A stretch of 63,886 nucleotides of DNA, filler included, from Acidimicrobiia bacterium (GCA_029210695.1; 3 parts of 3 records of this genome joined end to end with filler, not necessarily neighbours in it); one strand, 5' to 3'; positions 11,114-27,216 are shown, counted from the whole stretch's first letter. Notes: a model not told the origin generated them from the sequence alone. Translations and numbers: made by a program.

Positions 11114-11767
11114 CTACTGAACCGATCGCTGGTCGTCGACCTCGAAGTCGAGTTCGCTTTCGAGGCGAACGACTCCATCGAGACGGCGTGTCAGTTCCTC
11201 CAGGAGACGCGTATCGCTCTTGGTCGGCAGCGTCCCCTGCAGCGTGACGATTCCGTCGGCGACCGTGACGTCGACAACGCCGTCTTCGAGGAAGAGGATA
11301 CGGCGAATGACATCCTCACGGATCTCGTCCTCGATCACATCGTCCGGCCGCGCGAATGCGGCAACAACGTCGGCCCGGCTGATCACCCCGCGCAGTCTCC
11401 CCTCCGAGTCAACTACCGGAAGTCGCTTCACCCCGTGATTGACCATCACCCGAGCAGCCTCGGTCAAGCTGGCTTCCGGATAGATGACGAAGGGATCGAG
11501 CGTCATCGCCTGTTCGACCGTCTCAGCCTCAGCGACCTGCGGTTCATTGAAAAGAGCATCGAGCAGGCGACGCCGGCGTGGTTCTGACCGGCCGGCCTCC
11601 CGTGCGAGGAAGTCGGCCTCGGTGATGATGCCGATGATTTTCCCATCCTCGTCGAGGACCGGCAGGCCACTCACGCCAACATCGGTCATCGTGCGGGCTG
11701 CCTCCTTGAGGCTCATGCCGGGCGTTACCGTCACCACTTCGGTTGTCATGAGGTCCAGGACACGCAC
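11114..11767 (-). CDS. CBS-pair plus BON domain protein
   Basis: Two CBS repeats (SGLPV..GIITEAD; KRLPVV..GVISRAD) and C-terminal BON (VTVADGIVTLQG). Confidence 0.88.
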   Translation of the reverse strand: MRVLDLMTTEVVTVTPGMSLKEAARTMTDVGVSGLPVLDEDGKIIGIITEADFLAREAGRSEPRRRRLLDALFNEPQVAEAETVEQAMTLDPFVIYPEASLTEAARVMVNHGVKRLPVVDSEGRLRGVISRADVVAAFARPDDVIEDEIREDVIRRILFLEDGVVDVTVADGIVTLQGTLPTKSDTRLLEELTRRLDGVVRLESELDFEVDDQRSVQ

Positions 11768-11871
11768 TTCATGCTCCCTTCAGCCATGTCTGCCTGAGAT
11801 CCAGCTCAAGGCCATCCTCGGCACTTAGCTGCACATATCTGTGAGGGTAATCGGGGCGAGGCACCGGCCGG

Positions 11872-12540
11872 TCACTTCCCGACCCACGCCTCGGGCGGGT
11901 ACTCCTGCTCGCGACGGGCGGCCAATCGGGCGGCGTAGGCGGCGGCCTCGCTGCGCCGGCTCATCTCGAGTTTGGCGAGGAGATTGGAGACGTAGTTCTT
12001 CACCGTCTTCTCTGCGAGGAACATCTGCTCGGAAATCTCCCGATTGGTAAGGCCATCCGCGATGTGATCCAGGATCTTGCGTTCTTGCGGCGTGAGGCGG
12101 GCAAGGAGGGGGTCGTCTGGTTCGTCCCCCCGAAGCTTGCGAAAAAGCCGATCCGTCATCTCTCCGTCGAGCAGAGATTCTCCCGCTGCCACTTTGCGGA
12201 TGTTGTTGACGAGATCGTGAGAGTCGATGCGTTTCAGCACGTACCCGGAAGCGCCGGCGACAATGGCCGACATCAGGGCTTCCTCATCGGCATACGACGT
12301 GAGCATCAACACCTTGACGGCAGGCCAGCGGGAGCGGATCTCCCGGCAGGCTTCGACACCCGAGCCATCCGGCAGGCGGACGTCCATCACCACGACCTCA
12401 GGCGATGCATAGCCCACTCTCCGTACCGCCTCGGCCACGGATCCTGCTTCGCCGACCACCTCGAAATCCTCCTCGGCCTCGAGGAGAGCTTTCAAACCTT
12501 GACGAACGATCTCGTGATCATCGACAACCACTATGCGCAA
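11872..12540 (-). CDS. DosR/DevR-like NarL-family response regulator
   Basis: VDDHEIVR, MDVRLPDGSG, LTPQERKIL..GLTNREI..LAEKTVKNYVSNLLAKL; AGGAG RBS before TTG 12540. Confidence 0.9.
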   Translation of the reverse strand: MRIVVVDDHEIVRQGLKALLEAEEDFEVVGEAGSVAEAVRRVGYASPEVVVMDVRLPDGSGVEACREIRSRWPAVKVLMLTSYADEEALMSAIVAGASGYVLKRIDSHDLVNNIRKVAAGESLLDGEMTDRLFRKLRGDEPDDPLLARLTPQERKILDHIADGLTNREISEQMFLAEKTVKNYVSNLLAKLEMSRRSEAAAYAARLAARREQEYPPEAWVGK

Positions 12541-12573
12541 AGTGTTACTCCTGGACTCCAGGCTAATCGGAAT

Positions 12574-12623
12574 GGGACTTTCGACCCTGGTACTTGTTCC
12601 CCGACTGCACCGACCAAGGTCCC
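12574..12623. promoter_or_regulatory. Two DosR-type boxes between the divergent regulator and kinase genes
   Basis: GGGACTTTCGACCC (12574-12587) and CCGACCAAGGTCCC (12610-12623) resemble GGGAC-N4-GTCCC. Confidence 0.65.
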
Positions 12624-12662
12624 GAGTTCGGAAGAACGCGTGTTTCGGGATATCCTCACGCC

Positions 12663-13778
12663 ATGGTCGACGCAACGCTCCCAGCGAGCAGACTCGCCCA
12701 AATGGTAGAGGGTGCAGCCGCGGTCGCCGGGCAGACCGATCTGACCGCCGTCCTGTGGACTACCGTCGAGACTGCGATGGATCTGACGGGGGCCACGTAC
12801 GGTGCGCTGGGGGTCATCGGCGAGCACGGCACGCTCATTCAGTTCCTCCACGTGGGAATTGACCCCGACCTCACTGCCCGGATGGGTGACCCTCCCCGCG
12901 GCCGCGGGGTTCTCGGCACCATCACCCGCGTTGCGAAGACGGTCCGGGTGGACAAACTCTCCGACCATCCCGATTACGTCGGATTCCCCGATCATCATCC
13001 GTCGATGGAGACGTTCCTAGGTGTTCCCATCAAGATCGGCGATTCCGTGTTTGGAAACCTCTATCTGACCGAGAAGCCGCGGGGATTCACCCTCGATGAT
13101 GAGGCGCTGGTCGAAGCCCTGGCTGTCATCGCGGGATCTGCGATCTCCACCGCCCGCCTCCAGCGACGACTCAGAAGAGTCGCCGTTGTGGAGGACCGCG
13201 AGCGCATCGCCAGGGATCTCCACGACGCCATCATCCAGGACCTTTTCGCCGTCGGGCTTTCATTGCAGGCTCTCGCGCAAAGCATTCAGGACGAAGTCGC
13301 CCGTGGAGGACTCGATGAGGCGGTCGGGCGGCTCGACGACTCCATCGCGGCGCTGCGCCGCTACATATTCGACCTGAGGCCGCCCGTTTGGACGCGTCGC
13401 AATCTCCGCCTGGAGCTATCCGATATGGTCGGACAACTCGCCGGGCCGTACGGTGCAGACGTCGAGGTGCGGGTCTCGAGCGGAGCAGCCGACCTGGCGG
13501 GGACTACGGTGGACGACGCCCTCCAGATGATCCGCGAGGCGCTCAGTAACGCACTGCGGCACTCCGGAGCAACGACGATCTCGGTCAGCATCGAAGAAGC
13601 TGCCGACCGCGTCCTCATCACGGTATCCGATGACGGTGACGGGTTCGATCCAACCACTGTTCAAAAAGGCATGGGACTGGACAACCTGCGCTCGCGAGCC
13701 GACAAGGCGCGGGGCACCACCACGATCAACACATCGCCCGGTGAGGGCACAACGGTGCTGATCAGCCTGCCGCTCTGA
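12663..13778 (+). CDS. DosS/DevS-like GAF sensor histidine kinase (single GAF domain)
   Basis: GAF motif VGFPDHHPSMETFLGVPI..GNLYLTEK; ERIARDLHD H-box; EALSNALRH and DDGDGF ATPase motifs. Confidence 0.9.
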   Translation: MVDATLPASRLAQMVEGAAAVAGQTDLTAVLWTTVETAMDLTGATYGALGVIGEHGTLIQFLHVGIDPDLTARMGDPPRGRGVLGTITRVAKTVRVDKLSDHPDYVGFPDHHPSMETFLGVPIKIGDSVFGNLYLTEKPRGFTLDDEALVEALAVIAGSAISTARLQRRLRRVAVVEDRERIARDLHDAIIQDLFAVGLSLQALAQSIQDEVARGGLDEAVGRLDDSIAALRRYIFDLRPPVWTRRNLRLELSDMVGQLAGPYGADVEVRVSSGAADLAGTTVDDALQMIREALSNALRHSGATTISVSIEEAADRVLITVSDDGDGFDPTTVQKGMGLDNLRSRADKARGTTTINTSPGEGTTVLISLPL

Positions 13779-13793
13779 GCTGACGGCCTGCTG

Positions 13794-13883
13794 CCGCGGT
13801 TCCAGGTTCCAGGTTTTGAGTTCCAACCGGTCCAACTCCGTATGCGAAAGCTCGTCCAAAGAACCTAGAACCTAGAACCGCGG
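13794..13883. repeat. Palindromic heptamer element, copy 1: (GGTTCYA)n ... (TAGAACC)n
   Basis: ggttcca ggttcca ggttttg agttcca at 13798-13825; aagaacc tagaacc tagaacc at 13859-13879; closed by CCGC/GCGG. Confidence 0.7.
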
Positions 13884-13904
13884 GCCGCTCGAAGAGCGGC
13901 CCGC
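13880..13904. terminator. GC-rich hairpin between convergent genes
   Basis: GCGGGCCGCTC-gaa-GAGCGGCCCGC, 11-bp perfect stem. Confidence 0.6.
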
Positions 13905-14386
13905 TAAGAGTTGATGATTTCTTTCTCGGCCGGTCCGTTCGCCGGCGCCAATGCCGACGCAATGCGGTCCATGAACGCCTTCACGCTGGCCTCGGCGACG
14001 CGGTGTAGGAGGGCTCGATCGAGAACCTCACCTACCGGCCCGAGCGGCGGGTCGTAGGACCCGCGAAAGGTGAGCTGAGCTCGCGACGATCCAAGTGGCG
14101 CCACGATCAGATCTGCCAGCATTCTCGGGAAGAGACCGGGCGAACCTGTGGCGTCCCACATGAGCGGGATCGTCGTGTGCGCATGGGCCCGAATCGGTTC
14201 GCCAACGTGGAGGGACACCTCTTTGGCGAGCAGTGGCGTGTTTCCTACCGCCAGTCTCGCCCGGATGTCCTCGCCGTCGCGGTAGGCTTCCGAAGCCCAC
14301 GCGCCGAGTTCCTCGAATCGCTCGAGGAGTTCCCGTTCCACCTTCCGGAACGGACGGTCGACGTAGACGAAGTAATAAACGAACAA
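13904..14386 (-). CDS. Hypothetical protein (possibly SRPBCC-like fold), DosR-box associated
   Basis: Coherent ORF (GLFPRMLADL..GSYDPPLG..LHRVAEASVKAF); TTG start at 14386 inferred. Confidence 0.7.
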   Translation of the reverse strand: MFVYYFVYVDRPFRKVERELLERFEELGAWASEAYRDGEDIRARLAVGNTPLLAKEVSLHVGEPIRAHAHTTIPLMWDATGSPGLFPRMLADLIVAPLGSSRAQLTFRGSYDPPLGPVGEVLDRALLHRVAEASVKAFMDRIASALAPANGPAEKEIINS

Positions 14387-14443
14387 TCTGTTGTTTGCCT
14401 CTTCTGGTCCCGCAACCTTCCCACGCTGCCGCGGAAACGGGTA

Positions 14444-14457
14444 GGGACCTATGTCCC
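14444..14457. promoter_or_regulatory. DosR-type box
   Basis: GGGACCTATGTCCC, an exact GGGAC-N4-GTCCC palindrome in a divergent intergenic region. Confidence 0.7.
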
Positions 14458-14501
14458 CCAGTGCCCGCCGAACCGCACGCCTCTCCACCACAGGGACGGA
14501 T

Positions 14502-14517
14502 ATACTCGGGGGGGTAT
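14502..14517. promoter_or_regulatory. CsoR/RicR/CstR-family operator candidate
   Basis: ATAC-TCGGGGGG-GTAT, i.e. TAC/GTA flanking a G-tract, 30 nt upstream of the DUF302 gene. Confidence 0.55.
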
Positions 14518-14546
14518 TCAATTCTGACTGCTGAAAGGACACATGA

Positions 14547-14948
14547 ATGGAACAGCGACCCTATGGGCTACGCGTCGTGCTCGAGGCCGGACTCGAGGAG
14601 GCAGAAGCACGGACCCGCGTCGCGCTGGCCGCCGAGGGCTTCGGTATTCTCACCGAGATCGATGTCAAAGCGACCCTCAAACAGAAAATCGACGTTGATC
14701 GGCCGGGGTACAAGATTCTCGGCGCCTGCAATCCCCCACTTGCCAACCGTGCCCTCAACGCAGATGAGGAGATCGGCTTGCTTCTCCCCTGCAACGTTGT
14801 CGTCTACGAACACGGGCCCAGCACGATTGTCGAAGCACTCGACCCCGGCATCATGAGTTCCGTCACCGATGCGCCGGAAATGGTGGAGATCGCCGCAGAG
14901 GCGCGGGCGAGACTGGCGAGAGCGATGGAGAGCCTGGAGGCCGGATAG
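14547..14948 (+). CDS. DUF302 domain protein
   Basis: GFGILTEIDV, YKILGACNP, IGLLLPCNVVV motifs. Confidence 0.9.
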   Translation: MEQRPYGLRVVLEAGLEEAEARTRVALAAEGFGILTEIDVKATLKQKIDVDRPGYKILGACNPPLANRALNADEEIGLLLPCNVVVYEHGPSTIVEALDPGIMSSVTDAPEMVEIAAEARARLARAMESLEAG

Positions 14949-14973
14949 GCGATAGGCGAAAAGCAACCCGCGT

Positions 14974-15024
14974 TTCTCCCCCACGGGACGTGGGGGAGAT
15001 GCCGAGTCTCCGACGCAGAGGGGG
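14974..15024. repeat. REP/BoxC-like palindromic unit
   Basis: TCTCCCCCACG-gga-CGTGGGGGAGA followed by GAGGGGG; a related CTCCCC..GGGGAG hairpin lies at about 42134-42151. Confidence 0.4.
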
Positions 15025-15040
15025 CAATCGCACCGCGACG

Positions 15041-15084
15041 GACGCGGCGAAGCGAGGATCTTCAGATCCTCGCTTCGTTGCGTC
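15041..15084. terminator. Long hairpin, likely bidirectional terminator
   Basis: GACGCGGCGAAGCGAGGATCT / AGATCCTCGCTTCGTTGCGTC (two G-U pairs) between convergent genes. Confidence 0.65.
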
Positions 15085-15087
15085 GTA

Positions 15088-15591
15088 CTAGATGAAGATG
15101 ATCTGGGCTCCATCGGACAACTCCATGAAGTCGGACGCCGAGATGACGTCGTCGACCTCATCCCAGAGATCTTCCTTCTTGAGGCCCAACATGTCGTAGG
15201 TCAGGCGACAGGCCCAGAAGTGGGCTCCGGCGTCGGCGACCATTTGCATGAACTCCCTATGCGGCGGCACATCGAGTGCCTTCATCTCCTTGTGCATCAT
15301 GCTGGAGGCGAACGCCGTCATCCCGGGCAAACCGGCCAGCATGTTGGCCATGCCGATGTCGGTGCCTGGGATCTTCATCGACGGGTTGGCTACCGGTGAG
15401 ACCTTCAACTTGTCCATCCGGCGATCGATGATGGCGTCCATCCCCCAGAACGTGAAGAACACGTGGAGGTCGATTCCTTCACCGATAGCGGCGTTCCCGA
15501 GGACCATGGCGGCAGTCGCCCATTCCATGGTGCCCTTGCTCACGATGATGCAGAGCTTCCGATCTCCACCATCGTCATCAAATTTCGGCAC
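15088..15591 (-). CDS. DsrE/DsrF/DrsH-like (DsrE2) sulfur-carrier protein
   Basis: SKGT, VFFTFWG, WACRLT (conserved Cys), AQIIFI C-terminus; GAAGGAG RBS before GTG 15591. Confidence 0.88.
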   Translation of the reverse strand: MPKFDDDGGDRKLCIIVSKGTMEWATAAMVLGNAAIGEGIDLHVFFTFWGMDAIIDRRMDKLKVSPVANPSMKIPGTDIGMANMLAGLPGMTAFASSMMHKEMKALDVPPHREFMQMVADAGAHFWACRLTYDMLGLKKEDLWDEVDDVISASDFMELSDGAQIIFI

Positions 15592-15614
15592 TGAGTGTGC
15601 TCCTTCCCTCTCGA

Positions 15615-15932
15615 CTACACGCAGCCGGTTGGCTTCTGCAGACCGGATACGTACGACATCTTCTTGGCAGGCTTCTTCGGGAAGAGCTTGTAGAGGTCCT
15701 TCGTCGGAACTCCGGCCAGCGTCGACACGCGGCGCAGCGTGGCGGTTTCGCCTTGCGCTTCGTAGTCGGAACGCAGGAAGCGAATGACCTTCCAATGCTC
15801 CTCGGTGAGTTCGTCCAGGCCGATCTCCTTGCCGAGCGCCGGGGCGAGTTCCTCGGTCCACTGGCCCGGATTCGTCATGAATCCCTCTTCGTCGACGTCG
15901 AGTTCAACGCCGCCAATCAATTCGGTTGCCAT
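15615..15932 (-). CDS. TusE/DsrC-family sulfur relay protein (single C-terminal Cys, TusE type)
   Basis: DEEGF..W, HWKVI, LYKLFP, GLQKPTGCV; lacks the second DsrC Cys. Confidence 0.9.
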   Translation of the reverse strand: MATELIGGVELDVDEEGFMTNPGQWTEELAPALGKEIGLDELTEEHWKVIRFLRSDYEAQGETATLRRVSTLAGVPTKDLYKLFPKKPAKKMSYVSGLQKPTGCV

Positions 15933-15953
15933 GGGTTTCTCCCTTTCTGAGCG

Positions 15954-16652
15954 TTACTGCTCTGGTTGTTCTGGTAGATCTCCTGCGACAGACCGCAGAG
16001 CGCCGAGCGCCCGCGCCATGCCTCGTTTCACCGCCGGGTCCCGCATCTGCTTGAGGAGCCCGAACAGCGAAATGTCTTCAGGTACTTCTTGTTCACGGAC
16101 GTTCGAAGCCGTGTTGCGGAGCATCGTCATCACCTGCGGTTGCGTCATCTCGCGCACTGCCTGGAGGATGAGCACGACGTTGTCGCCGAGCGCATTCACG
16201 TCTTCTTTCGTGAACGACGTGACGACGTTGTCGACGACCCCGAGTGAACTCCTGACGAAATCGAAATAGCCTTTGCGCTCATACTCATCGAGCGCATTCA
16301 TGAGTTTGAGCGAAACATCACCGGTGATCGGTTGGATCTCGACAAATATGTCCATCAGGCTCTCGAGCTGATCGAGCATCTTCTCGAGGTTTCCTGTGTT
16401 GCGGACCAGACGCTTGATCAGGTGACCGAGGTCTTGAATGCTGACGTACTGATCCACCTCGGCCAGTTGACGGACGGCGAGACCGTACATGTCACCGGCC
16501 AAGGGCGTGACGTCGGCCAGCAGCTCGTCCCACCCCTGCCGGCGGCGCTTCGACTCGATGGCTTGTTCGGTCAGGTATTCGACCTGCACCGTGAGGCGGT
16601 CGAGCTTCTCGTTGAGCTCTGCAATGGTCGCTTCTGCGTTGACGGTTGTCAT
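15954..16652 (-). CDS. DUF1641 domain coiled-coil protein
   Basis: C-terminal SLFGLLKQMRDPAVKRGM motif; next to SQR. Confidence 0.8.
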   Translation of the reverse strand: MTTVNAEATIAELNEKLDRLTVQVEYLTEQAIESKRRRQGWDELLADVTPLAGDMYGLAVRQLAEVDQYVSIQDLGHLIKRLVRNTGNLEKMLDQLESLMDIFVEIQPITGDVSLKLMNALDEYERKGYFDFVRSSLGVVDNVVTSFTKEDVNALGDNVVLILQAVREMTQPQVMTMLRNTASNVREQEVPEDISLFGLLKQMRDPAVKRGMARALGALRSVAGDLPEQPEQ

Positions 16653-16656
16653 CGTC

Positions 16657-17895
16657 TCAGCTCCACTTCCCGGCCATCGTCATGTGTGCCGTCACCGGCA
16701 TCTCTTTGCCTTTTAGGAGCACGTTCCAGTAGATCCAACGGAACATCATCTTGCCCCAGTGGTTCATCTCCGATTCCTGGAGGAGAGAGAACGGCCCGAC
16801 TCCCGGCAAGGGGTACTTACCCGGCAGGGGCTCCGTGTCGTAGTTGAAGTCGATGAGGAGGCCCTTGCCGTGACCGGACTCGATGAAGCAGTTGGCGTGG
16901 CCGTCAAATGTCTCAACCATGTCAAGCCCATCGACGTAGCGCAGGAAATTCTCGAGCCAGACCTCAACGGCGAAGTGCGCAACGGATCCGGCCTTGGAAG
17001 TCGGCAGGTCTGCCGCGTCACCGAGGGCGAAGATGTTGTCGTACTGCGTTGACAGGAACGTTCCCTTGTCGACGGGCACGTGATTGAGTTCATCACCCAG
17101 CCCGGACCTGGCTACGAAGTCGGCGCCCATGTTGACCGGAACCGTGACCAGCAGGTCGTATTCGACTTCCTCCTCGTCGTAGGCAATGAGCTTGTTGTTC
17201 TCCGCATCGACGCTTTCCACCACGAAGTCGGCAACGAGATGGATCTTCTTCTCGTCGAGCATTCCGCCCAGCGCCCGGGAGGCGATCGGCTTGGTGAACG
17301 CACCGGGGAGGGGGGTTACATAGTGCAGTTCGACCTCGTCGCGGATGCCCTGCTCGGATGCCCACCAGTCCGCCAGGAAGATGAACTCGAGCGGCGCAAC
17401 CGGGCACTTGAACGGCATCTCCATGATGTTCATCACGAGCTTGCCGCCCTTCCAGCTGCGCAGAAACTTCTGCAATCGGAGTGCACCCTCGTAGGTGTAG
17501 AAGGTATGGACGTTATCCGGCATGTTGCCGTCTTCGTCAGTGAGGCCCGGCGTCTCTTCGAGGCGCGGATGCGTCCCGGTGGCAATGACGAGATAGTCGT
17601 AATCGAGCCAGCGGTCACCTTCGACGATCTTGACCCGATTGTTCTCGGGGTCGACGAGTTCGATCTCCGACGTGATCATTTTGATCCCGGATGGAATGAA
17701 GTCCCGCTTGGCCTTGATGACGTCGTTGCGCCCGTAGATCCCGAACGGGATGAACAAGAACCCCGGCTGGTAGTAGTGGGTTTCGTCTTGATCGACGATC
17801 GTGATATCCCACTCACCACCATCGAGGTGATGGCTCAGCTTGTTGACGACCATCGTGCCGGCAGTGCCGGCGCCGAGGACGAGCAGCTTTCTCAT
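16657..17895 (-). CDS. sqr: Sulfide:quinone oxidoreductase-family flavoprotein
   Basis: GAGTAG FAD motif, HYYQPG, KCPVAPLE and FDGHANCF catalytic Cys pair, ALGDA, SKAGSVAH. Confidence 0.88.
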   Translation of the reverse strand: MRKLLVLGAGTAGTMVVNKLSHHLDGGEWDITIVDQDETHYYQPGFLFIPFGIYGRNDVIKAKRDFIPSGIKMITSEIELVDPENNRVKIVEGDRWLDYDYLVIATGTHPRLEETPGLTDEDGNMPDNVHTFYTYEGALRLQKFLRSWKGGKLVMNIMEMPFKCPVAPLEFIFLADWWASEQGIRDEVELHYVTPLPGAFTKPIASRALGGMLDEKKIHLVADFVVESVDAENNKLIAYDEEEVEYDLLVTVPVNMGADFVARSGLGDELNHVPVDKGTFLSTQYDNIFALGDAADLPTSKAGSVAHFAVEVWLENFLRYVDGLDMVETFDGHANCFIESGHGKGLLIDFNYDTEPLPGKYPLPGVGPFSLLQESEMNHWGKMMFRWIYWNVLLKGKEMPVTAHMTMAGKWS

Positions 17896-18683
17896 TGATG
17901 CTCCTTGGTTGGTACAACCGCGCCGGCCAGCGTCGCAATGGCGTCGAGTTTGGCGAGGTGATTTGTTCGTTCATTGGCGATCTGTGACAGCATCTGCGCC
18001 ATGCGCGGCAGATAGGACAACACGTTGCGGCGACTGGTTTCGTCGAGGCGGAACACATCGTGCACGTGGCTCTTCACCAGATCCGGGGCTACACCGAAGG
18101 CCTCCGCGATGGTCTCGAGTTCATCCGCAGCAGGCGGCCAGACATCCGGTGCGATTCCGCCGACGAGCACCATGCCTTTCAGTTCCGATCCGACCCGGAC
18201 GAAGCTCCGTGCGCACAACAGGCCCATGTGGCTGGGCAGGAAGCGGGGTTGCAGGTCGGCTTCATCGGCGAGGCGCTTCCAGCTCACCACACACCGGGCG
18301 ACTGCGTCATCGGTCTGGTTGATGGCGTCAAAGAGGCCGCACGGATTTGCCGCTTCCGAAATCGGTCGTCCGTCCATGTCGGTCACGACGACCATCACTC
18401 CCAGCAGTTGTCCGAGTAGTTCGGCCATGTCGTCGACGTACTCACGCGGCAGCAGGCCGGCCAGCGATCCATCGACAGACTGGATGAGGTTTCCCAGTTC
18501 AGGCGTCTGGGACGGTGTCGCCGTCTGTGCACCCAGCCAGTTGTTGATCTGCTCGGAGGGGAACCGCCACTGTCTTCCGACTTTGATCGCCGGAAGCCGG
18601 CCCGTTTCTGCCATCCGATATATGGTCGAACGATCGACCTGAAGGATGGCCTGGAGATCCTTGGCGGTGAGCAGCGAAGTCAT
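17892..18683 (-). CDS. Excisionase/MerR-like (HTH_17) DNA-binding domain fused to a PocR sensory domain
   Basis: N-term LLTAKDLQAILQVDRSTIYRMAETGRLPAIKVGRQWRF; C-term PocR-like VTDMDG..NPCGLF..C..HMGL; coupled to sqr. Confidence 0.8.
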   Translation of the reverse strand: MTSLLTAKDLQAILQVDRSTIYRMAETGRLPAIKVGRQWRFPSEQINNWLGAQTATPSQTPELGNLIQSVDGSLAGLLPREYVDDMAELLGQLLGVMVVVTDMDGRPISEAANPCGLFDAINQTDDAVARCVVSWKRLADEADLQPRFLPSHMGLLCARSFVRVGSELKGMVLVGGIAPDVWPPAADELETIAEAFGVAPDLVKSHVHDVFRLDETSRRNVLSYLPRMAQMLSQIANERTNHLAKLDAIATLAGAVVPTKEHQ

Positions 18684-18714
18684 CGCAGTGCTCCTGCCAA
18701 GTGCCCTTCAGCGG

Positions 18715-18879
18715 GCTTCCGCATGTTCTGCATACCCTGCAGATTACGTTCTGCCGGAGCTTGTGAAGTAGAGCACAAGGTCCCATACCCGGGGACCTTG
18801 TGCCTCACTGTGCGGACAATGCCGACAATGCACCTAGTGCAGAAGGGTTGGATGCATGTCATGCAGAGCGTGCCGCTCG
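18715..18879. promoter_or_regulatory. Operator region: 9-bp periodic TGC-N6 arrays flanking a 12-bp inverted repeat of Dos-like half boxes
   Basis: TGC at 18811/18820/18829/18838 and 18853/18862/18871 (+) and 18741/18732/18723 (-); GCACAAGGTCCC (18773-18784) / GGGACCTTGTGC (18792-18803). Confidence 0.6.
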
Positions 18880-20142: not shown

Positions 20143-21017
20143 TCACGACGACCTCGCTCACCAAGGCCTACGGATCCCGACACGCTCTCGATGATGTCTC
20201 GGTTTCTGTTCCAGACGGCTCCGTCTACGGCCTCGTTGGCCCGAACGGCGCCGGAAAGACGACTCTGCTCGGGATCCTGGCCGGACTCCGCCGCCCCACT
20301 TCGGGGTCCGTCGAAATCGGTGTCCCCCGGGAACGGCTGGCCGTGCTTCCGGATACCCCGCAATTCGAGCCCTGGTTGACGGCTCGCGAGGTGGTCGATC
20401 TGTCCCGCAACCTCTCGGCTCCGGAGGTTCCTCCGGCCAGGGTCGAAGAAGTATTGATCGAGGCCGGCCTCGAGGAGGCCATCAACGTGAGGGTCGGTGG
20501 ATTCTCGAGAGGAATGCTGCAACGCCTCGGATTGGCAGCCACCGTCATCGGCAACCCCCAGGTGCTCCTACTCGACGAACCCAGCGCCGCACTCGACCCC
20601 GCCGGACGCCGGGAGGTGCTCGATGTCGTGACGCGACTGCGCGGCCGGGCCACCGTGATGTTCTCCAGTCACATATTGAGCGACGTGCAGGAGGTGTGCG
20701 ACACCGTCGGCATCCTCAGGGACGGCCGCCTGCTCTTCGAGGGAGCGCTCAACGACCTCCTCGTCGGACGGGCCGGGATCATCTATCGAATCCGACTGCG
20801 GGAACCGCATGAACGGCTCGTCGCTTCACTTCAGAATGCGTCCTGGGTGGGTTCTGTCGAGCAACTGGCTCCGGGCGACCTCAGGGTGACCGCCAGCGAT
20901 CCAGGAGTGGCCGAACGCAACCTCATCAAGGTCCTGGCCGATGCAGAGGCGGTCGTGATCTCGGTCACTCCGGAAGGAGCTGATCTCGAGGACGTCTTCC
21001 TGGAGCTGACCTCATGA
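20139..21017 (+). CDS. ABC transporter ATP-binding protein
   Basis: GPNGAGKTT, FSRGM, LLLDEP, SSH motifs. Confidence 0.93.
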   Translation: MITTTSLTKAYGSRHALDDVSVSVPDGSVYGLVGPNGAGKTTLLGILAGLRRPTSGSVEIGVPRERLAVLPDTPQFEPWLTAREVVDLSRNLSAPEVPPARVEEVLIEAGLEEAINVRVGGFSRGMLQRLGLAATVIGNPQVLLLDEPSAALDPAGRREVLDVVTRLRGRATVMFSSHILSDVQEVCDTVGILRDGRLLFEGALNDLLVGRAGIIYRIRLREPHERLVASLQNASWVGSVEQLAPGDLRVTASDPGVAERNLIKVLADAEAVVISVTPEGADLEDVFLELTS

Positions 21018-21741
21018 ACCTCTGGAGACTCGAGTGGCTGCGCATGACCCGGACCAGCCGTTGGATAGCGATCTTCGCCGTCTTCATGTTCTTCGGGATC
21101 ATCGGACCGCTCTCGGCTCGCTACATCGGCGAGATCGTCGAGCAGTTTGGCGGCGGCATCGAGGTGTCGTTCCCCGAACCGACGCCGGCAGACGGCATCA
21201 TGCAGTACTCGGGCAACGTCCAGCAGTTGGGGCTCCTCGTGCTGATCATGGTCGCCGCCGGCGCTCTCACCATCGAATCCCGCTACGCACACGGGTTGGC
21301 AGCACGGCTCGCCTGCTGATTCCTCGCTACGTCGTTGTGGCAGGAACCGGGGTCATCGCCTTCGTCGCCGGCACGCTGCTCGCCTGGTATGAGACGGTCG
21401 TGCTGATCGGACCGCTCGACGCCGGCGCCATGGCCGCCGGTATGGCTTTCGGCAGTGTGTACCTGCTGTTCGCCGTGGCCGTGGTGGCATTTGCCGGATC
21501 CGCGCTCAAGAACGTCCTGCCGACCGTGATCGTAACGCTGACGGTGCTGCTCCTCCTCCCGCTCTTCGGGCTGATCCCGGTTGTTGAGGAGTGGCTCCCG
21601 AGTCACCTCGTGGGAGCGCTCGACGGGCTCGTCAGAGGCGGAGAGGCGACGGACTTCATCAAATCCCTCGTGGTGACCCTGGCCGGTACGTTGGCGCTGC
21701 AGTATGGGACAATACGACTGCTGGCGCGCCGCGAACTCTGA
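21014..21741 (+). pseudogene. ABC-2 permease split by a frameshift near 21280
   Basis: N-half in the frame of 21014-21319 (..ALTIES); C-half (LRTRVG..RREL) in another frame ending at 21741. Confidence 0.75.
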
Positions 21742-22419: not shown

Positions 22420-23268
22420 GTGATCGTCGACAGCTACCGGTTTCTTCCCCGCAGTTTCCGTCCCATCTACGAAAACCCCGAACCACACGGCTCCAACCAG
22501 GTCTGGGCATCGTTCGAGAAACGATTGAGCGACAGTCGCATTGCCATCCTCACGTCATCAGGAATGTACCTCGAGGAAACCCAGCAGCCGTTCGACCTCG
22601 AACGGGAGAGAGCAGAACCAACCTGGGGCGATCCGAGCTTTCGCGTGATTCCGTCACCGGTCGACCAAATCGGTCTTGCGCACCTGCACATCAGTCACGA
22701 TGACATCCTCGCCGATCCAAACATCGCACTACCGGTCGACCGGTTGGCGGAACTGACCAGGAGCGGCATCGTCGGTGAGATCGCACCCCGGCACATCTCC
22801 GTCATGGGGTTCCAGGGGACCAGCCTGGAAGGCTGGCGTGACATCGCCGCCCCCGGGATCATCGATCTCCTCCACGAAGACGAAGTGGATGGGCTGATCC
22901 TCGCTCCGGTCTGACCGGACTGTTGTAAGAACGTGCCCGTGCTGGCACGCTGGATCGAAGCAGCCGGAATCCCCACCGTGGTGGTCACGATGATGCCCGA
23001 CCTCGCCACAAAGCTGCACACACCCCGGACGGTTGGTGTGGAGTTTCCGTTCGGGCACCCGTTTGGACTTCCGCATGAACCCGCCATGCAGCATCGCGTG
23101 CTGGGCGAAGCGCTCCACGTGCTGGCCGGAGCAGACCGCTTCGGGACGAGGATCGACGTCGATCTCGAATGGCCGGTACCCCGCAAAGAGGCTTACCGGA
23201 ACTGGCAGCCGGCGGAGCCGAGCCCAATCGTCCAGTGGTGGATAAGCCAGGGTGCGCTTGACAGGTAG
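22420..23268 (+). CDS. Selenoprotein, glycine/sarcosine/betaine reductase selenoprotein B (GrdB/PrdB)-like, Sec at UGA 22912-22914
   Basis: ORFs 22420-22914 and 22933-23268 are in frame; the join reads LAPV-U-PDC (UxxC) then ARWIEAAGIPTV; GDPSFR, DPNIALP and PFGHPFG family motifs; hairpin at 22932-22949. Confidence 0.85.
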
Positions 23269-25230: not shown

Positions 25231-25422
25231 CTACTCATCGAGAGGGATACGAAATTCGCATTTCGCTAAGGAGTCCGGGTGCCAATTGCCAAGTGCCAAT
25301 TGCGTGTAGCTCGCCTTCCCGCCAACTCCTTGATAACTAGTCATCATGTGTGTGCGCGCAACAACCCGCGGGTTTTCTGCCGACTTCCCGATATCCAATC
25401 CATAGATCTGGGAGGTCTGAGA

Positions 25423-27216
25423 GTGAACGAAGCTCGTTCGGTCAAGTGGGAAGGAACGCGCCGCTGGTATCTGGCGGTGCTGCTCGTGGTGGCGATGATC
25501 GCCGCGCTGGTCACTCCGATGCCTTCTTCGGCGGATGATTCGCCGTTGCTCCAGGTGATTGTTGAGAAGACGAGCGGTGCCGATGGTTCGGTTGAACAGC
25601 TCGTCGAGATGCTGGGCGGCACCGTCCTGACCGACCTCCCGATCATCAACGGCTTCTCAGCTCAATTGCCGGCCGCCTCTGTCTCCTCCCTCAGAACCAA
25701 TCGGTCGGTCTCAAACGTCACGTTGAATGATTCAATCCAGTTGACCAACGCCGGGTGGGGCGATGCCTCGAGCCTTGGTGCCTATAACCCGAACACCTTC
25801 GATGGATCGATGTACCGGGTGGCGGAATCGATCATCAAGGCGACCGATTATTGGAATACGGGATATACGGGTGCAGGCATCGACATCGCGTTGATCGACT
25901 CAGGGGTAGTCCCGGTCGAGGGCCTGCTTCAACCCGGCAAGGTCGTAAACGGTCCCGACCTGTCGTTCGAATCACAGGCCGACAACCTTCGCTACCTGGA
26001 CACGTTCGGCCACGGCACCCACATGGCCGGCATCATCGCCGGGCGAGACACCGGCGCCGCGATTACTAAATCCAACACCTCGTCGTTTCTCGGGGTGGCG
26101 CCGGGGTCGCGTATCGTCAGTCTGAAGGTGGCCGATGCCCATGGCGCCACCGATGTTTCACAGATCCTGGCTGCCATCGACTGGGTCGTTCAGCACCGCA
26201 CCGACAACGGGATGAACATACGGGTGCTCAACCTCTCATTCGGCACAGACAGCACCCAGAGCTACACCCTCGACCCGATTGCGTTCGCGGTCGAGCAGGC
26301 CTGGAACGCCGGCATCGTGGTGGTGGTCGCTTCCGGCAACGACGGAAACAGTGCCCGCTTGCGGAACCCGGCCGCCGATCCATTTGTCATCGCGGTCGGA
26401 TCATCTGAGAGCGCCAAGTCCAGGGCCGCGCTCTCGAGTGTGATGGACTTCTCCAACTGCGGGACCCAACAACGGCACGTCGATCTGGTCGTTCCCGGCC
26501 AATCGATCGTCAGCCTACGGAGCCCGGGTTCCACTGCCGACACCGACTTCCCGAAGGCACGAGTGGGAAGCCGGTTGTTCCTCGGTTCCGGCACGAGCCA
26601 GTCGGCGGCGATTGTGTCGGGGATGGCCGCTCTCATTCTCGATGAGCGTCCCGGCGCCACGCCGGATCAGGTGAAGGCACTGTTGATGGGCTCGACTCTC
26701 AACCTCAAGAAGGCTTCGAGCCTCTGTCAGGGCGCCGGCGTACCGACGCTGGACAAGGTGCTGGGCAAATCGAACCCAATCGCGGTGCAGAGCTTCCAGC
26801 CGTCGACCGGGACCGGTTCTCTCGAATCAGCCAGAGGATCGAGCCGCATCTACGACCAGGGCGCCCCACTGGTGGGAGAGCAGGACATCTTCGGTATGCC
26901 GTGGGACGGCCAGACATGGGCGCAGGCTTCGGCCGCCGGCTTTTCCTGGTCGGGAGGCAGTTGGAACGGATCTCAATGGACGGGCCTGTCGTGGTCCGGC
27001 CTGTCATGGTCCGGTCTCTCGTGGAGCGGCTTGTCGTGGTCCGGTCTTTCGTGGAGTGGTCTCTCGTGGAGCAGCCGGCTGTGGAGTGATGCGACCTGGT
27101 CGGGCCTGTCATGGTCGGGTCTCTCGTGGTCCGGTCTCTCCTGGAGCGGCCTCTCCTGGAGTGGCAACGTGTGGCACGGAGTGAGCTGGGACTCGGCCCG
27201 CCCCGGGTTCCTGTAA
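25423..27216 (+). CDS. Secreted S8 (subtilisin/AprX-like) serine protease with Trp pentapeptide-repeat tail
   Basis: Signal peptide, I9-like prodomain, IDSG / GHGTH / SGTSQ triad, ASGN; GGAGG RBS before GTG 25423. Confidence 0.92.
   Translation: MNEARSVKWEGTRRWYLAVLLVVAMIAALVTPMPSSADDSPLLQVIVEKTSGADGSVEQLVEMLGGTVLTDLPIINGFSAQLPAASVSSLRTNRSVSNVTLNDSIQLTNAGWGDASSLGAYNPNTFDGSMYRVAESIIKATDYWNTGYTGAGIDIALIDSGVVPVEGLLQPGKVVNGPDLSFESQADNLRYLDTFGHGTHMAGIIAGRDTGAAITKSNTSSFLGVAPGSRIVSLKVADAHGATDVSQILAAIDWVVQHRTDNGMNIRVLNLSFGTDSTQSYTLDPIAFAVEQAWNAGIVVVVASGNDGNSARLRNPAADPFVIAVGSSESAKSRAALSSVMDFSNCGTQQRHVDLVVPGQSIVSLRSPGSTADTDFPKARVGSRLFLGSGTSQSAAIVSGMAALILDERPGATPDQVKALLMGSTLNLKKASSLCQGAGVPTLDKVLGKSNPIAVQSFQPSTGTGSLESARGSSRIYDQGAPLVGEQDIFGMPWDGQTWAQASAAGFSWSGGSWNGSQWTGLSWSGLSWSGLSWSGLSWSGLSWSGLSWSSRLWSDATWSGLSWSGLSWSGLSWSGLSWSGNVWHGVSWDSARPGFL
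26947..27189 (+). repeat. 15-bp coding tandem repeat (WSGLS)n
   Basis: 17 TGG codons at exact 15-nt spacing; synonymous variation among copies. Confidence 0.95.

Follow-up and report, generated by a model that had tools for sequence, protein, structure and literature searches.

Here we describe an operon encoding a sulfide:quinone oxidoreductase (SQR) of type III that lies next to a DosRS-like two-component system at positions 11,114–18,879 of a window of 63,886 nucleotides (the whole stretch of DNA that was analysed). The window joins three contigs of an Acidimicrobiia bacterium (GCA_029210695.1; genome completeness 97.85%), and the locus is on contig G000:C131. The reading that we prefer, at a probability of roughly 0.55, is that the operon would serve low-oxygen sulfide detoxification, with the electrons passing to menaquinone via a tube of a helical membrane plugin (HMP) protein of the DUF1641 family, and the sulfur passing to the carrier TusE and then to DsrE2. 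The identity of the genes, the conservation of the operon, the three motifs in its promoter with their spacing and co-occurrence, and the existence of SQR-TusE fusions can be established from sequence. The dosRS genes and the sqr operon are best explained as two modules that are neighbours within the genus and are linked by regulation across the order.

The sqr operon, its predicted quinone-tube partner and its sulfur carriers

The five genes of the operon are as follows.

17892..18683, minus strand: HTH_17 (BldC-like) plus PocR regulator (Pfam; likeness to BldC by description)
16657..17895, minus strand: type III SQR, Cys form, above the cut-off of NF049943; Cys164, Cys336
15954..16652, minus strand: DUF1641/HMP protein, predicted quinone tube; PF07849 at residues 187-221
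15615..15932, minus strand: single-Cys TusE/DsrC-like carrier (Cys104; KPTGCV end), above the cut-off of TIGR03342
15088..15591, minus strand: DsrE2-like sulfur carrier (Cys128), by PF13686 and its Cys motif

A Pfam scan of the window recovered, each in its place, all the genes that had been named in an earlier, sequence-only reading of this DNA (CBS and BON; Response_reg and GerE; GAF, HisKA_3 and HATPase; DUF302; DrsE_2; DsrC; DUF1641; Pyr_redox_2; HTH_17 and PocR). The flavoprotein is supported as the SQR it was taken for, specifically of type III: it scores 626.5 bits on NF049943 (cut-off 525), has kept Cys164 and Cys336, and is predicted to possess sulfide:quinone activity. Its redox-cysteine motifs, KCPVAPLE and DGHANC, are each present in 109 of the 110 close loci, and its closest solved relative is the mitochondrial SQOR (E 1.5e-34). 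Type III has been described as the least known SQR class (PMC10205796) and includes a selenoprotein form with the motif HxxU (PMC13188914). This form is ruled out here by the Cys at position 336, although the genome contains selA, and no selenocysteine was found at the cysteines of SQR, TusE or DsrE2 across the 110 close loci. Farther away in the phylum, 7 of the 29 loci examined have a TGA at the Cys336 position, and these seven lack tusE-dsrE2 downstream. They make up a selenocysteine-type SQR clade (L160-L164, L171, L173) within one family of the phylum where, by eye, a tusA or DsrC-like gene is found nearby on the opposite strand and, in L160, an aprB-like gene. In another protein, P0145, two CBS domains are fused to an SQR of the family under study.

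Orthologues of this SQR, at 56% identity or more, were found in 38 of the 61 genomes of the order, the own genome included, and in many Chloroflexota; the loci, promoters and genomes counted here and below are related to each other and hence are not independent. After removal of 5 duplicates from the 110 loci, 105 distinct ones remain, of which 68 carry all five genes; among the 95 loci with room downstream, tusE is present in 94, dsrE2 in 94 and DUF1641, directly after sqr, in 89. Of 301 genomes sampled across the phylum, 32 had a match, and tusE-dsrE2 was found downstream in 21 of the 29 phylum loci examined and DUF1641 in 6. Thus, sqr-tusE-dsrE2 is the core, with DUF1641 and HTH-PocR optional.

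The neighbourhood of dosRS is another matter. The pair adjoins the operon in 3 of the 4 other genomes of the genus that have the operon; elsewhere in the order, adjacency was detected in one (G030) of the 30 genomes with both genes, a count that could be lowered by fragmented assemblies hiding the linkage; G020 and G034, however, are near-complete, and there the two lie more than 0.5 Mb apart. A conserved dosRS-sqr cluster is rejected on this count, and the idea that the whole 8 kb region forms one conserved system is not supported. In two further genomes, from other families, an SQR-type gene other than this one is located near dosS (L139, L140), so that sulfur genes do recur there; the kinases near two other loci (L048, L055) turned out not to be orthologues. 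The men genes, which the sequence-only reading had linked to the operon, also flank dosRS in L139 and L140 and, for most sqr operons, did not turn up in the vicinity, so that their adjacency is no evidence for the operon; menaquinone itself is still the likely electron acceptor of SQR. Because adjacency is not conserved, the link between dosRS and sqr, which does not hold by gene order, is to be sought in the promoter.

The composition of the operon had been described correctly, but the role of the DUF1641 protein was missed. DUF1641/HMP proteins form quinone-carrying tubes for type II NADH dehydrogenase (NDH-2), formate dehydrogenase and hydrogenase (PMC13524794, PMC13433803); most HMP genes adjoin SQR genes, an adjacency that has been called ancestral, and Ndh docks on its HMP via its C-terminal region (PMC13433803). 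The product of the single-copy DUF1641 gene scores 32 bits on PF07849 (cut-off 21), and a profile of 58 homologues gave ForE1 (8rqz) as the best match (E 1.7e-6), with YjlC at 0.012 and Ncp at 0.018. The protein thus classifies with the quinone-tube family, and a tube is predicted. The monomer model is all-helical and of low confidence, and a fold search with it returned no match at E 0.001 or better; a complex prediction for SQR with four copies of residues 90-228 scored 0.02, which has no weight either way.

Further indications come from SQR itself. When 94 SQRs with adjacent DUF1641 were compared with 24 that lack it (13 were unclassified), the five most discriminating of the 412 positions all fell within the C-terminal helix 376-384. 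In particular, E376 is present in 89/94 versus 2/24, W380 in 92/94 versus 5/24, and M384 in 88/94 versus 4/24. On an SQR tree that was built without this helix and covers 88 of the 131 rows, the presence of DUF1641 changes at least 11 times and, for E376, no sister rows go the opposite way, with only 4 independent pairs on supported branches. This pattern is suggestive of a tie between helix 376-384 and the DUF1641 partner.

The carrier next in the operon was filed as TusE-like because it has one cysteine and the genome has no dsrA: DsrC proper, the partner of DsrAB, is marked by two C-terminal cysteines. The KPxGC[VI] end is kept in all complete TusE homologues listed. The last protein of the operon is labelled DsrE2-like since it matches PF13686 and, at 106 bits, stays below the cut-off (210) of the DsrE2 equivalog NF047629. 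TusE relatives of greater length were searched for, with 13 matches; one of the 9 inspected, P0128, is a clean SQR-linker-TusE fusion. With P0128 as query, the best 150 matches included two more full-length fusions, P0134 and P0139 (53% and 38% identical to it); the P0139 cluster includes RefSeq Mobiluncus proteins and has a length of 562 aa in 10 of the 15 members listed. The long linker would fit a carrier that swings in and out of the active site of SQR.

As to the fate of the sulfur, the earlier observation that the window lacks rhodanese and dsrAB stands insofar as no rhodanese match was found on its three contigs and no match to dsrA, soxB or NrfD/PsrC rose above the cut-off in the genome. 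For rhodanese, this absence says little, as the window is three joined contigs and the genome contains 13 rhodanese matches, including a rhodanese-MBL fusion with the motif THLHADH (G000:C133:20404-21531) that could act as a persulfide dioxygenase. For sulfur storage, the other function that had been suggested, no evidence was found. Two additional sulfur loci in the genome comprise, respectively, this fusion with an ArsR gene and a second DsrE2-like gene (L132, G000:C133:20404-22651), and ArsR-rhodanese, a DsrE-like gene and a second SQR-like gene (L133, G000:C99:1060-3326).

Three putative operators and a probable oxygen sensor

The regulatory genes and sites considered in this section are the following.

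11872..12540, minus strand: DosR/DevR-like response regulator; best PDB match DevR 3c3w, E 5.6e-66
12663..13778, plus strand: single-GAF DosS/DosT-like kinase; best PDB matches are DosT/DevS GAF domains
12574..12587, no strand: DosR-type box near the dosR promoter; one mismatch; 15.7 bits (matrix start 12572); kept in the genus
12610..12623, no strand: weak DosR-type box upstream of dosS; two mismatches; not among the 14 best on the contig; kept in 5/5 other genus genomes
14444..14457, no strand: strong DosR-type box in the gap separating the START gene from DUF302; exact match; 16.4 bits (matrix start 14442)
18771..18805, no strand: weak tandem DosR-type boxes (18771-18784, 18792-18805); half-matches; 9.2 and 3.1 bits
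18761..18778, no strand: site resembling a Rex operator, in overlap with the DosR-type box; 21.5 bits, ranking 4th genome-wide
18741..18746, minus strand: predicted -10 hexamer TAATCT, 22 bp after the DosR-type box
18720..18741, no strand: proximal TGCA repeats (period, 9 bp) that cover the predicted start site; candidate HTH-PocR operator
18829..18865, no strand: distal TGCA repeats (18829, 18838, 18853, 18862)

The EKTVKNYVS helix of the regulator is identical to that of DevR (3c3w). The kinase has one GAF stretch (residues 25-161), without a second GAF domain; among the PDB matches, we take 2vzw to be DosT. The GFPDHHP motif of the kinase starts at residue 107, so that His112, the predicted heme ligand, aligns with the histidine of the DevS motif GFPxxHP (presumably His149), and Gly50 stands where DevS has Glu87, as in DosT; both residues are kept in 20 of 20 loci, the own one included. 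We assume that Glu versus Gly at this position is meaningful for the distinction between DosS and DosT. Sulfide acts on DosS in the ferric state but not on DosT (PMC9062744), so that the kinase, which looks DosT-like, is more safely read as a sensor of O2, with heme binding and gas response as predictions, and the earlier suggestion of an H2S trigger acting through it is disfavored. Sulfide sensing would more likely fall to HTH-PocR.

The DosR-type boxes follow the pattern GGGAC-N4-GTCCC, which matches the OsdR/DevR consensus (PMC5069765), and were scored by a weight matrix for which 23 sites of other families served as the training set. Of the boxes that had been listed beforehand, those at 14444 and 12574 are clearly beyond chance: their matrix matches (14442 and 12572) rank within the genome's top 15 non-coding sites, and in 5 of 5 other genus genomes the 14444 box scores 13.9-16.4 bits. 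The boxes at 12610, 18771 and 18792 are weak by score; accordingly, the case for those before the operon rests on conservation and position. Promoters from 97 loci were examined, 13 having been dropped (5 as duplicates, 1 for a cut gene and 7 for insufficient length). A DosR-type box with at most one mismatch precedes 22 of the 29 actinobacterial operons with HTH-PocR (2.3 expected from shuffles), and at a threshold of 9 bits or more, with each site or family left out of the training, a box was found upstream in 27 of the 33 genomes that carry dosS versus none of the 3 that lack it. The conservation of such boxes upstream of orthologous sqr operons, which had been set as a test beforehand, is thereby borne out. 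The promoters are also alike in layout: a TAnnnT hexamer follows at +21 or +22 from the box in 14/29 and a TGCA at +26/27 or +35/36 in 19/29. The 18771 box lies in the same conserved register as the strong boxes of other families and reaches 13.4 bits in one genus member. Taken together, the operon classifies as a putative member of the DosR regulon, with the box weak in its own genome. Many Chloroflexota promoters (L034-L081) have a different tandem palindrome, GTGAC-N4-GTCAC (23/42; 0.3 expected), which would fit either a DosR-like or a CRP/FNR protein.

The second operator-like site is that of Rex, a regulator whose gene was confirmed in the genome; the consensus was taken from PMC5355995. 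Rex operators are present in 19 of 29 actinobacterial and 25 of 42 Chloroflexota promoters, against 0.0 and 1.2 expected, and two genomes without dosS (L141, L142) keep only a perfect Rex box. CRP/FNR appears less likely than Rex as the reader of 18761-18778, given the TTGTGAA-N4-TTCACAA form of the site in relatives. Other top sites of the genome lie at the rex gene and some 570 bp ahead of the atp operon; in Streptomyces, where the operator consensus is the same, both rex and the atp operon are Rex targets (PMC5355995). The sqr operon thus qualifies as a predicted Rex regulon member. A weaker Rex-type site (15.7 bits) was also noticed upstream of a gene for a cytochrome of the octaheme tetrathionate-reductase family (L136, G000:C66:17254-18952).

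The third motif belongs with the HTH-PocR gene: TGCA-N5-TGCA occurs in 62 of the 71 promoters with this gene versus 0 of 26 without it, was not found in 25 loci that lack it when some 1.5 kb of upstream sequence was scanned, and, as two or more TGCA pairs, is confined in this genome to the intergenic region of the sqr operon among 1509 promoters. Because BldC-type heads bind direct repeats (PMC5859096), the TGCA repeats are likely to be the autoregulatory operator of HTH-PocR. Cysteines 115, 131 and 157 of the PocR domain are kept in 65, 71 and 65 of 71 homologues, respectively; where HTH-PocR is missing, an ArsR-like or MerR-like gene is often found in its place (by eye). The layered control that had been proposed for the locus is therefore supported and appears richer than envisaged, owing to the addition of the Rex operator and the TGCA repeats.

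Proposed mechanism and its alternatives

From these data we infer the binding events, the tube complex, the path of sulfur, the inducer and the direction of catalysis as follows. The DosT/DosS-like heme sensor and DosR would respond to low oxygen, and the promoter would require activation by phosphorylated DosR, release of Rex at high NADH (when oxygen is short or the heme-copper oxidases are blocked by sulfide), and release of HTH-PocR from the TGCA repeats over the start site, probably via its three cysteines. The genome encodes three COX1-family matches and yielded no match to cytochrome bd, so that sulfide would raise NADH and lift Rex repression. SQR would oxidise sulfide and pass the electrons via FAD to menaquinone, docking by its C-terminal helix on the DUF1641/HMP tube to reach the quinone; in tube-less operons, it would bind the membrane directly. 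The sulfane sulfur would move from the catalytic cysteine to the C-terminal Cys arm of TusE and on to DsrE2, and from there to polysulfide or S0 or to a rhodanese-dioxygenase encoded elsewhere. A bolder version, which we put forward tentatively and with the odds against it, depicts an ancestral SQR-HMP complex: a soluble SQR working off the membrane on a quinone-filled tube or filament, with a DsrC-fold arm instead of a small thiol as the direct sulfur acceptor and a triple gate of oxygen, NADH and sulfur, which, in Acidimicrobiia and Anaerolineae, may run in reverse under anoxia as a persulfide-reducing electron sink.

Several observations weigh against the detoxification scenario. The box before the operon is weak: its 9.2 bits (18769/18771) are reached by 5.1% of the genome's 1509 promoters. 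A good box is missing from 6 of the 33 dosS-carrying genomes, the negative control comprises only 3 genomes, and a second DosR-like regulator of the genome (59% identical) could read the boxes. Induction at high NADH fits poorly with feeding electrons to the quinone pool, and the direct sulfide data come from a different operon, with TusA in place of TusE. Most of the apparent TusE fusions among the 9 inspected are frameshift artefacts. The link between helix and DUF1641 gives p 0.25 in a sign test on 4 independent pairs, E376 is missing from several DUF1641-linked SQRs (L012, L014, L042-L044), and DUF1641 is dispensable, none having been found in the locus or genome of five relatives by a search run without a positive control. 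Some of these points would suit an alternative arrangement in which the box is a remnant, so that DosR does not act here, and Rex and HTH-PocR regulate an ordinary membrane-binding SQR with DUF1641 as an accessory. The box score, the lack of conserved dosRS adjacency and the frequency of DUF1641-less operons are compatible with it, and overlap with the Rex site could explain why the box is conserved in the genus. But the GGGAC half lies outside the Rex site, the register and the 13.4-bit box of the genus member would be left over, and DUF1641 is kept in 89/95 close loci; we regard this arrangement as quite unlikely.

Unlikely, too, though somewhat less so, is that SQR works mainly in reverse, or reversibly, in anoxia, TusE and DsrE2 supplying persulfide or polysulfide that would be reduced by HMP-tube quinol as an electron sink at high NADH. 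Control by Rex and by DosR is in each case indicative of anoxia and a surplus of reductant, and the two dosS-lacking genomes with only a perfect Rex box point the same way. The operon is common in Anaerolineae and SQR is fused to TusE in Mobiluncus, both largely anaerobic groups. Menaquinol, at about -74 mV, would however have to reduce polysulfide, at about -260 mV, which is uphill; the genome has no NrfD/PsrC match, and the SQRs with TGA at the Cys336 position, which might speak for reduction, lack tusE-dsrE2 downstream. Anoxic Methylacidiphilum fumariolicum does make H2S from S0, but a hydrogenase is indicated for this activity (PMC10205796). Still more improbable is a sulfide-fed supply line, whereby SQR would make TusE/DsrE2 persulfide for biosynthesis (tRNA thiolation, cofactors) in low oxygen, with detoxification secondary. 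TusE has the terminal Cys only, as in biosynthetic TusE, and there is no dsrA, soxB or NrfD in the genome to use the sulfur for energy; yet, with the proteins of the window as queries, no biosynthetic gene was seen tied to the operon, the replacement regulators resemble sensors of persulfide or metal stress, and a quinone tube suggests high flux.

Detoxification is also how one of the closest described systems has been read, namely, the type III sqr-tusA-dsrE2 operon MFUM_v2_0219-21 of M. fumariolicum SolV, which is about 1.7-fold up in sulfide (PMC10205796) and, like the operon studied here, combines sqr with two sulfur carriers, one of them DsrE2; ours differs in having a TusE/DsrC-fold carrier, DUF1641, HTH-PocR, and DosR and Rex boxes. 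The DUF1641 gene beside a quinone-reacting oxidoreductase recalls Ndh-YjlC(Ncp), ForCE and Huc (PMC13433803, PMC13524794, PMC8808070), and yjlC-ndh is likewise Rex-repressed (PMC5355995); as in the HMP complexes, the C-terminal helix of the SQR carries partner-specific residues. Unlike the known HMPs, the protein studied here has 232 aa, as opposed to 140-186, with an extra N-terminal helical stretch, and its gene shares an operon with those of sulfur carriers. Mycobacterial DosRST and Streptomyces OsdKR share with the locus a DevR-like regulator, a heme-type GAF with the proximal His motif and a box resembling AGGGCCGATCGGCCCT, whereas the kinase studied here has one GAF instead of two and the DosT-like Gly at the Glu87 position (PMC9062744, PMC5069765). 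No sqr operon was found among the DosRST/OsdKR targets in the available parts of these papers, or among the Streptomyces Rex targets in that of PMC5355995. With BldC (PMC5859096), the HTH-PocR protein shares an HTH_17/MerR-like head, which is predicted to bind direct repeats head to tail; it differs in that the head is fused to a three-Cys PocR sensor and would act locally, on TGCA repeats of 9-bp period.

What is already known, then, is the SQR-HMP adjacency (PMC13433803) and the sulfide-induced type III sqr-tusA-dsrE2 operon (PMC10205796). The available literature yielded no description of Rex, DosR or TGCA control of the operon, of SQR-TusE fusions, or of a purified SQR-HMP complex; the supplements of PMC13433803 or Broc et al. 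2025 may treat SQR-HMP in detail. SQR is the commonest and the proposed ancestral HMP partner, yet, in the same literature, only complexes of formate dehydrogenase, hydrogenase and NDH-2 are described. The locus makes a sulfide-oxidising complex of an untested kind directly testable, through residues 376-384, tube-less operons, TusE Cys104 and the three mapped operators. If the proposal is correct, sulfide handling would belong to the low-oxygen programmes governed by DosR and Rex in widespread Acidimicrobiia (and by Rex in Chloroflexota). It would also account for a DsrC-like gene that is common where dsrAB is absent from the genome and that can pass for dissimilatory sulfur metabolism.

Neighbouring genes and other observations

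The remaining features of the region are linked to dosRS or lie between it and the operon.

11114..11767, minus strand: CBS-CBS-BON protein (Pfam); adjoins dosR in most dosS loci
13904..14386, minus strand: START/SRPBCC-fold protein, linked to dosRS; model pLDDT 87.7, Foldseek
14502..14517, no strand: CsoR/CstR-type operator-like site upstream of DUF302; one of two genome loci with the pattern
14547..14948, plus strand: DUF302 protein (Pfam)

The CBS-CBS-BON gene is a companion of dosRS, not of the sqr operon. The START/SRPBCC-fold gene was overlooked in the original gene list; its Foldseek matches are START-fold proteins, including CoxG, at TM 0.3-0.5, and its product is probably a binder of lipid or quinone. 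Elsewhere (L175, L177, L196), a paralogue adjoins the second DosR-like gene, and a homologue lies directly upstream of sqr in two DUF1641-less operons; the protein might be an alternative quinone shuttle. In five other Acidimicrobiia loci, the DUF302 gene comes after dsrE2 and is co-oriented with it (L047, L051, L068, L077, L079). The pattern upstream of it, which we take to be of the CsoR/CstR operator type, is recognisable in 6 of 6 relatives examined. A site like it precedes sqr in L028, which has neither HTH-PocR nor dosS, and a CsoR-family gene (two Cys, no His) adjoins a rhodanese gene elsewhere in the genome (L137, G000:C109:32422).

Two candidate selenoproteins were encountered. In the window, a PrdB/GrdB-like reductase (22420-23268, plus strand) has one in-frame TGA (LAPV-stop-PDCC), and the joined frame scores 120 bits on TIGR04483 versus 65 for its first half, so that it is a probable selenoprotein. 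Elsewhere in this selA-containing genome, a rhodanese-like ORF with two in-frame TGA codons five codons apart (L149, G000:C121:8473-9228, minus strand) probably encodes a double-selenocysteine protein. One estuary metatranscriptome contained 7% of the words, with relatives' contigs mostly 90-95% alike and without strand or level information, and was not used. Also in the window are an ABC permease gene in two frames (21014-21741, plus strand; 21014-21319 and 21337-21741), reflecting a frameshift or an assembly error, and a subtilisin-like protease (25279-27216, plus strand) with many WSGLS repeats at its end.

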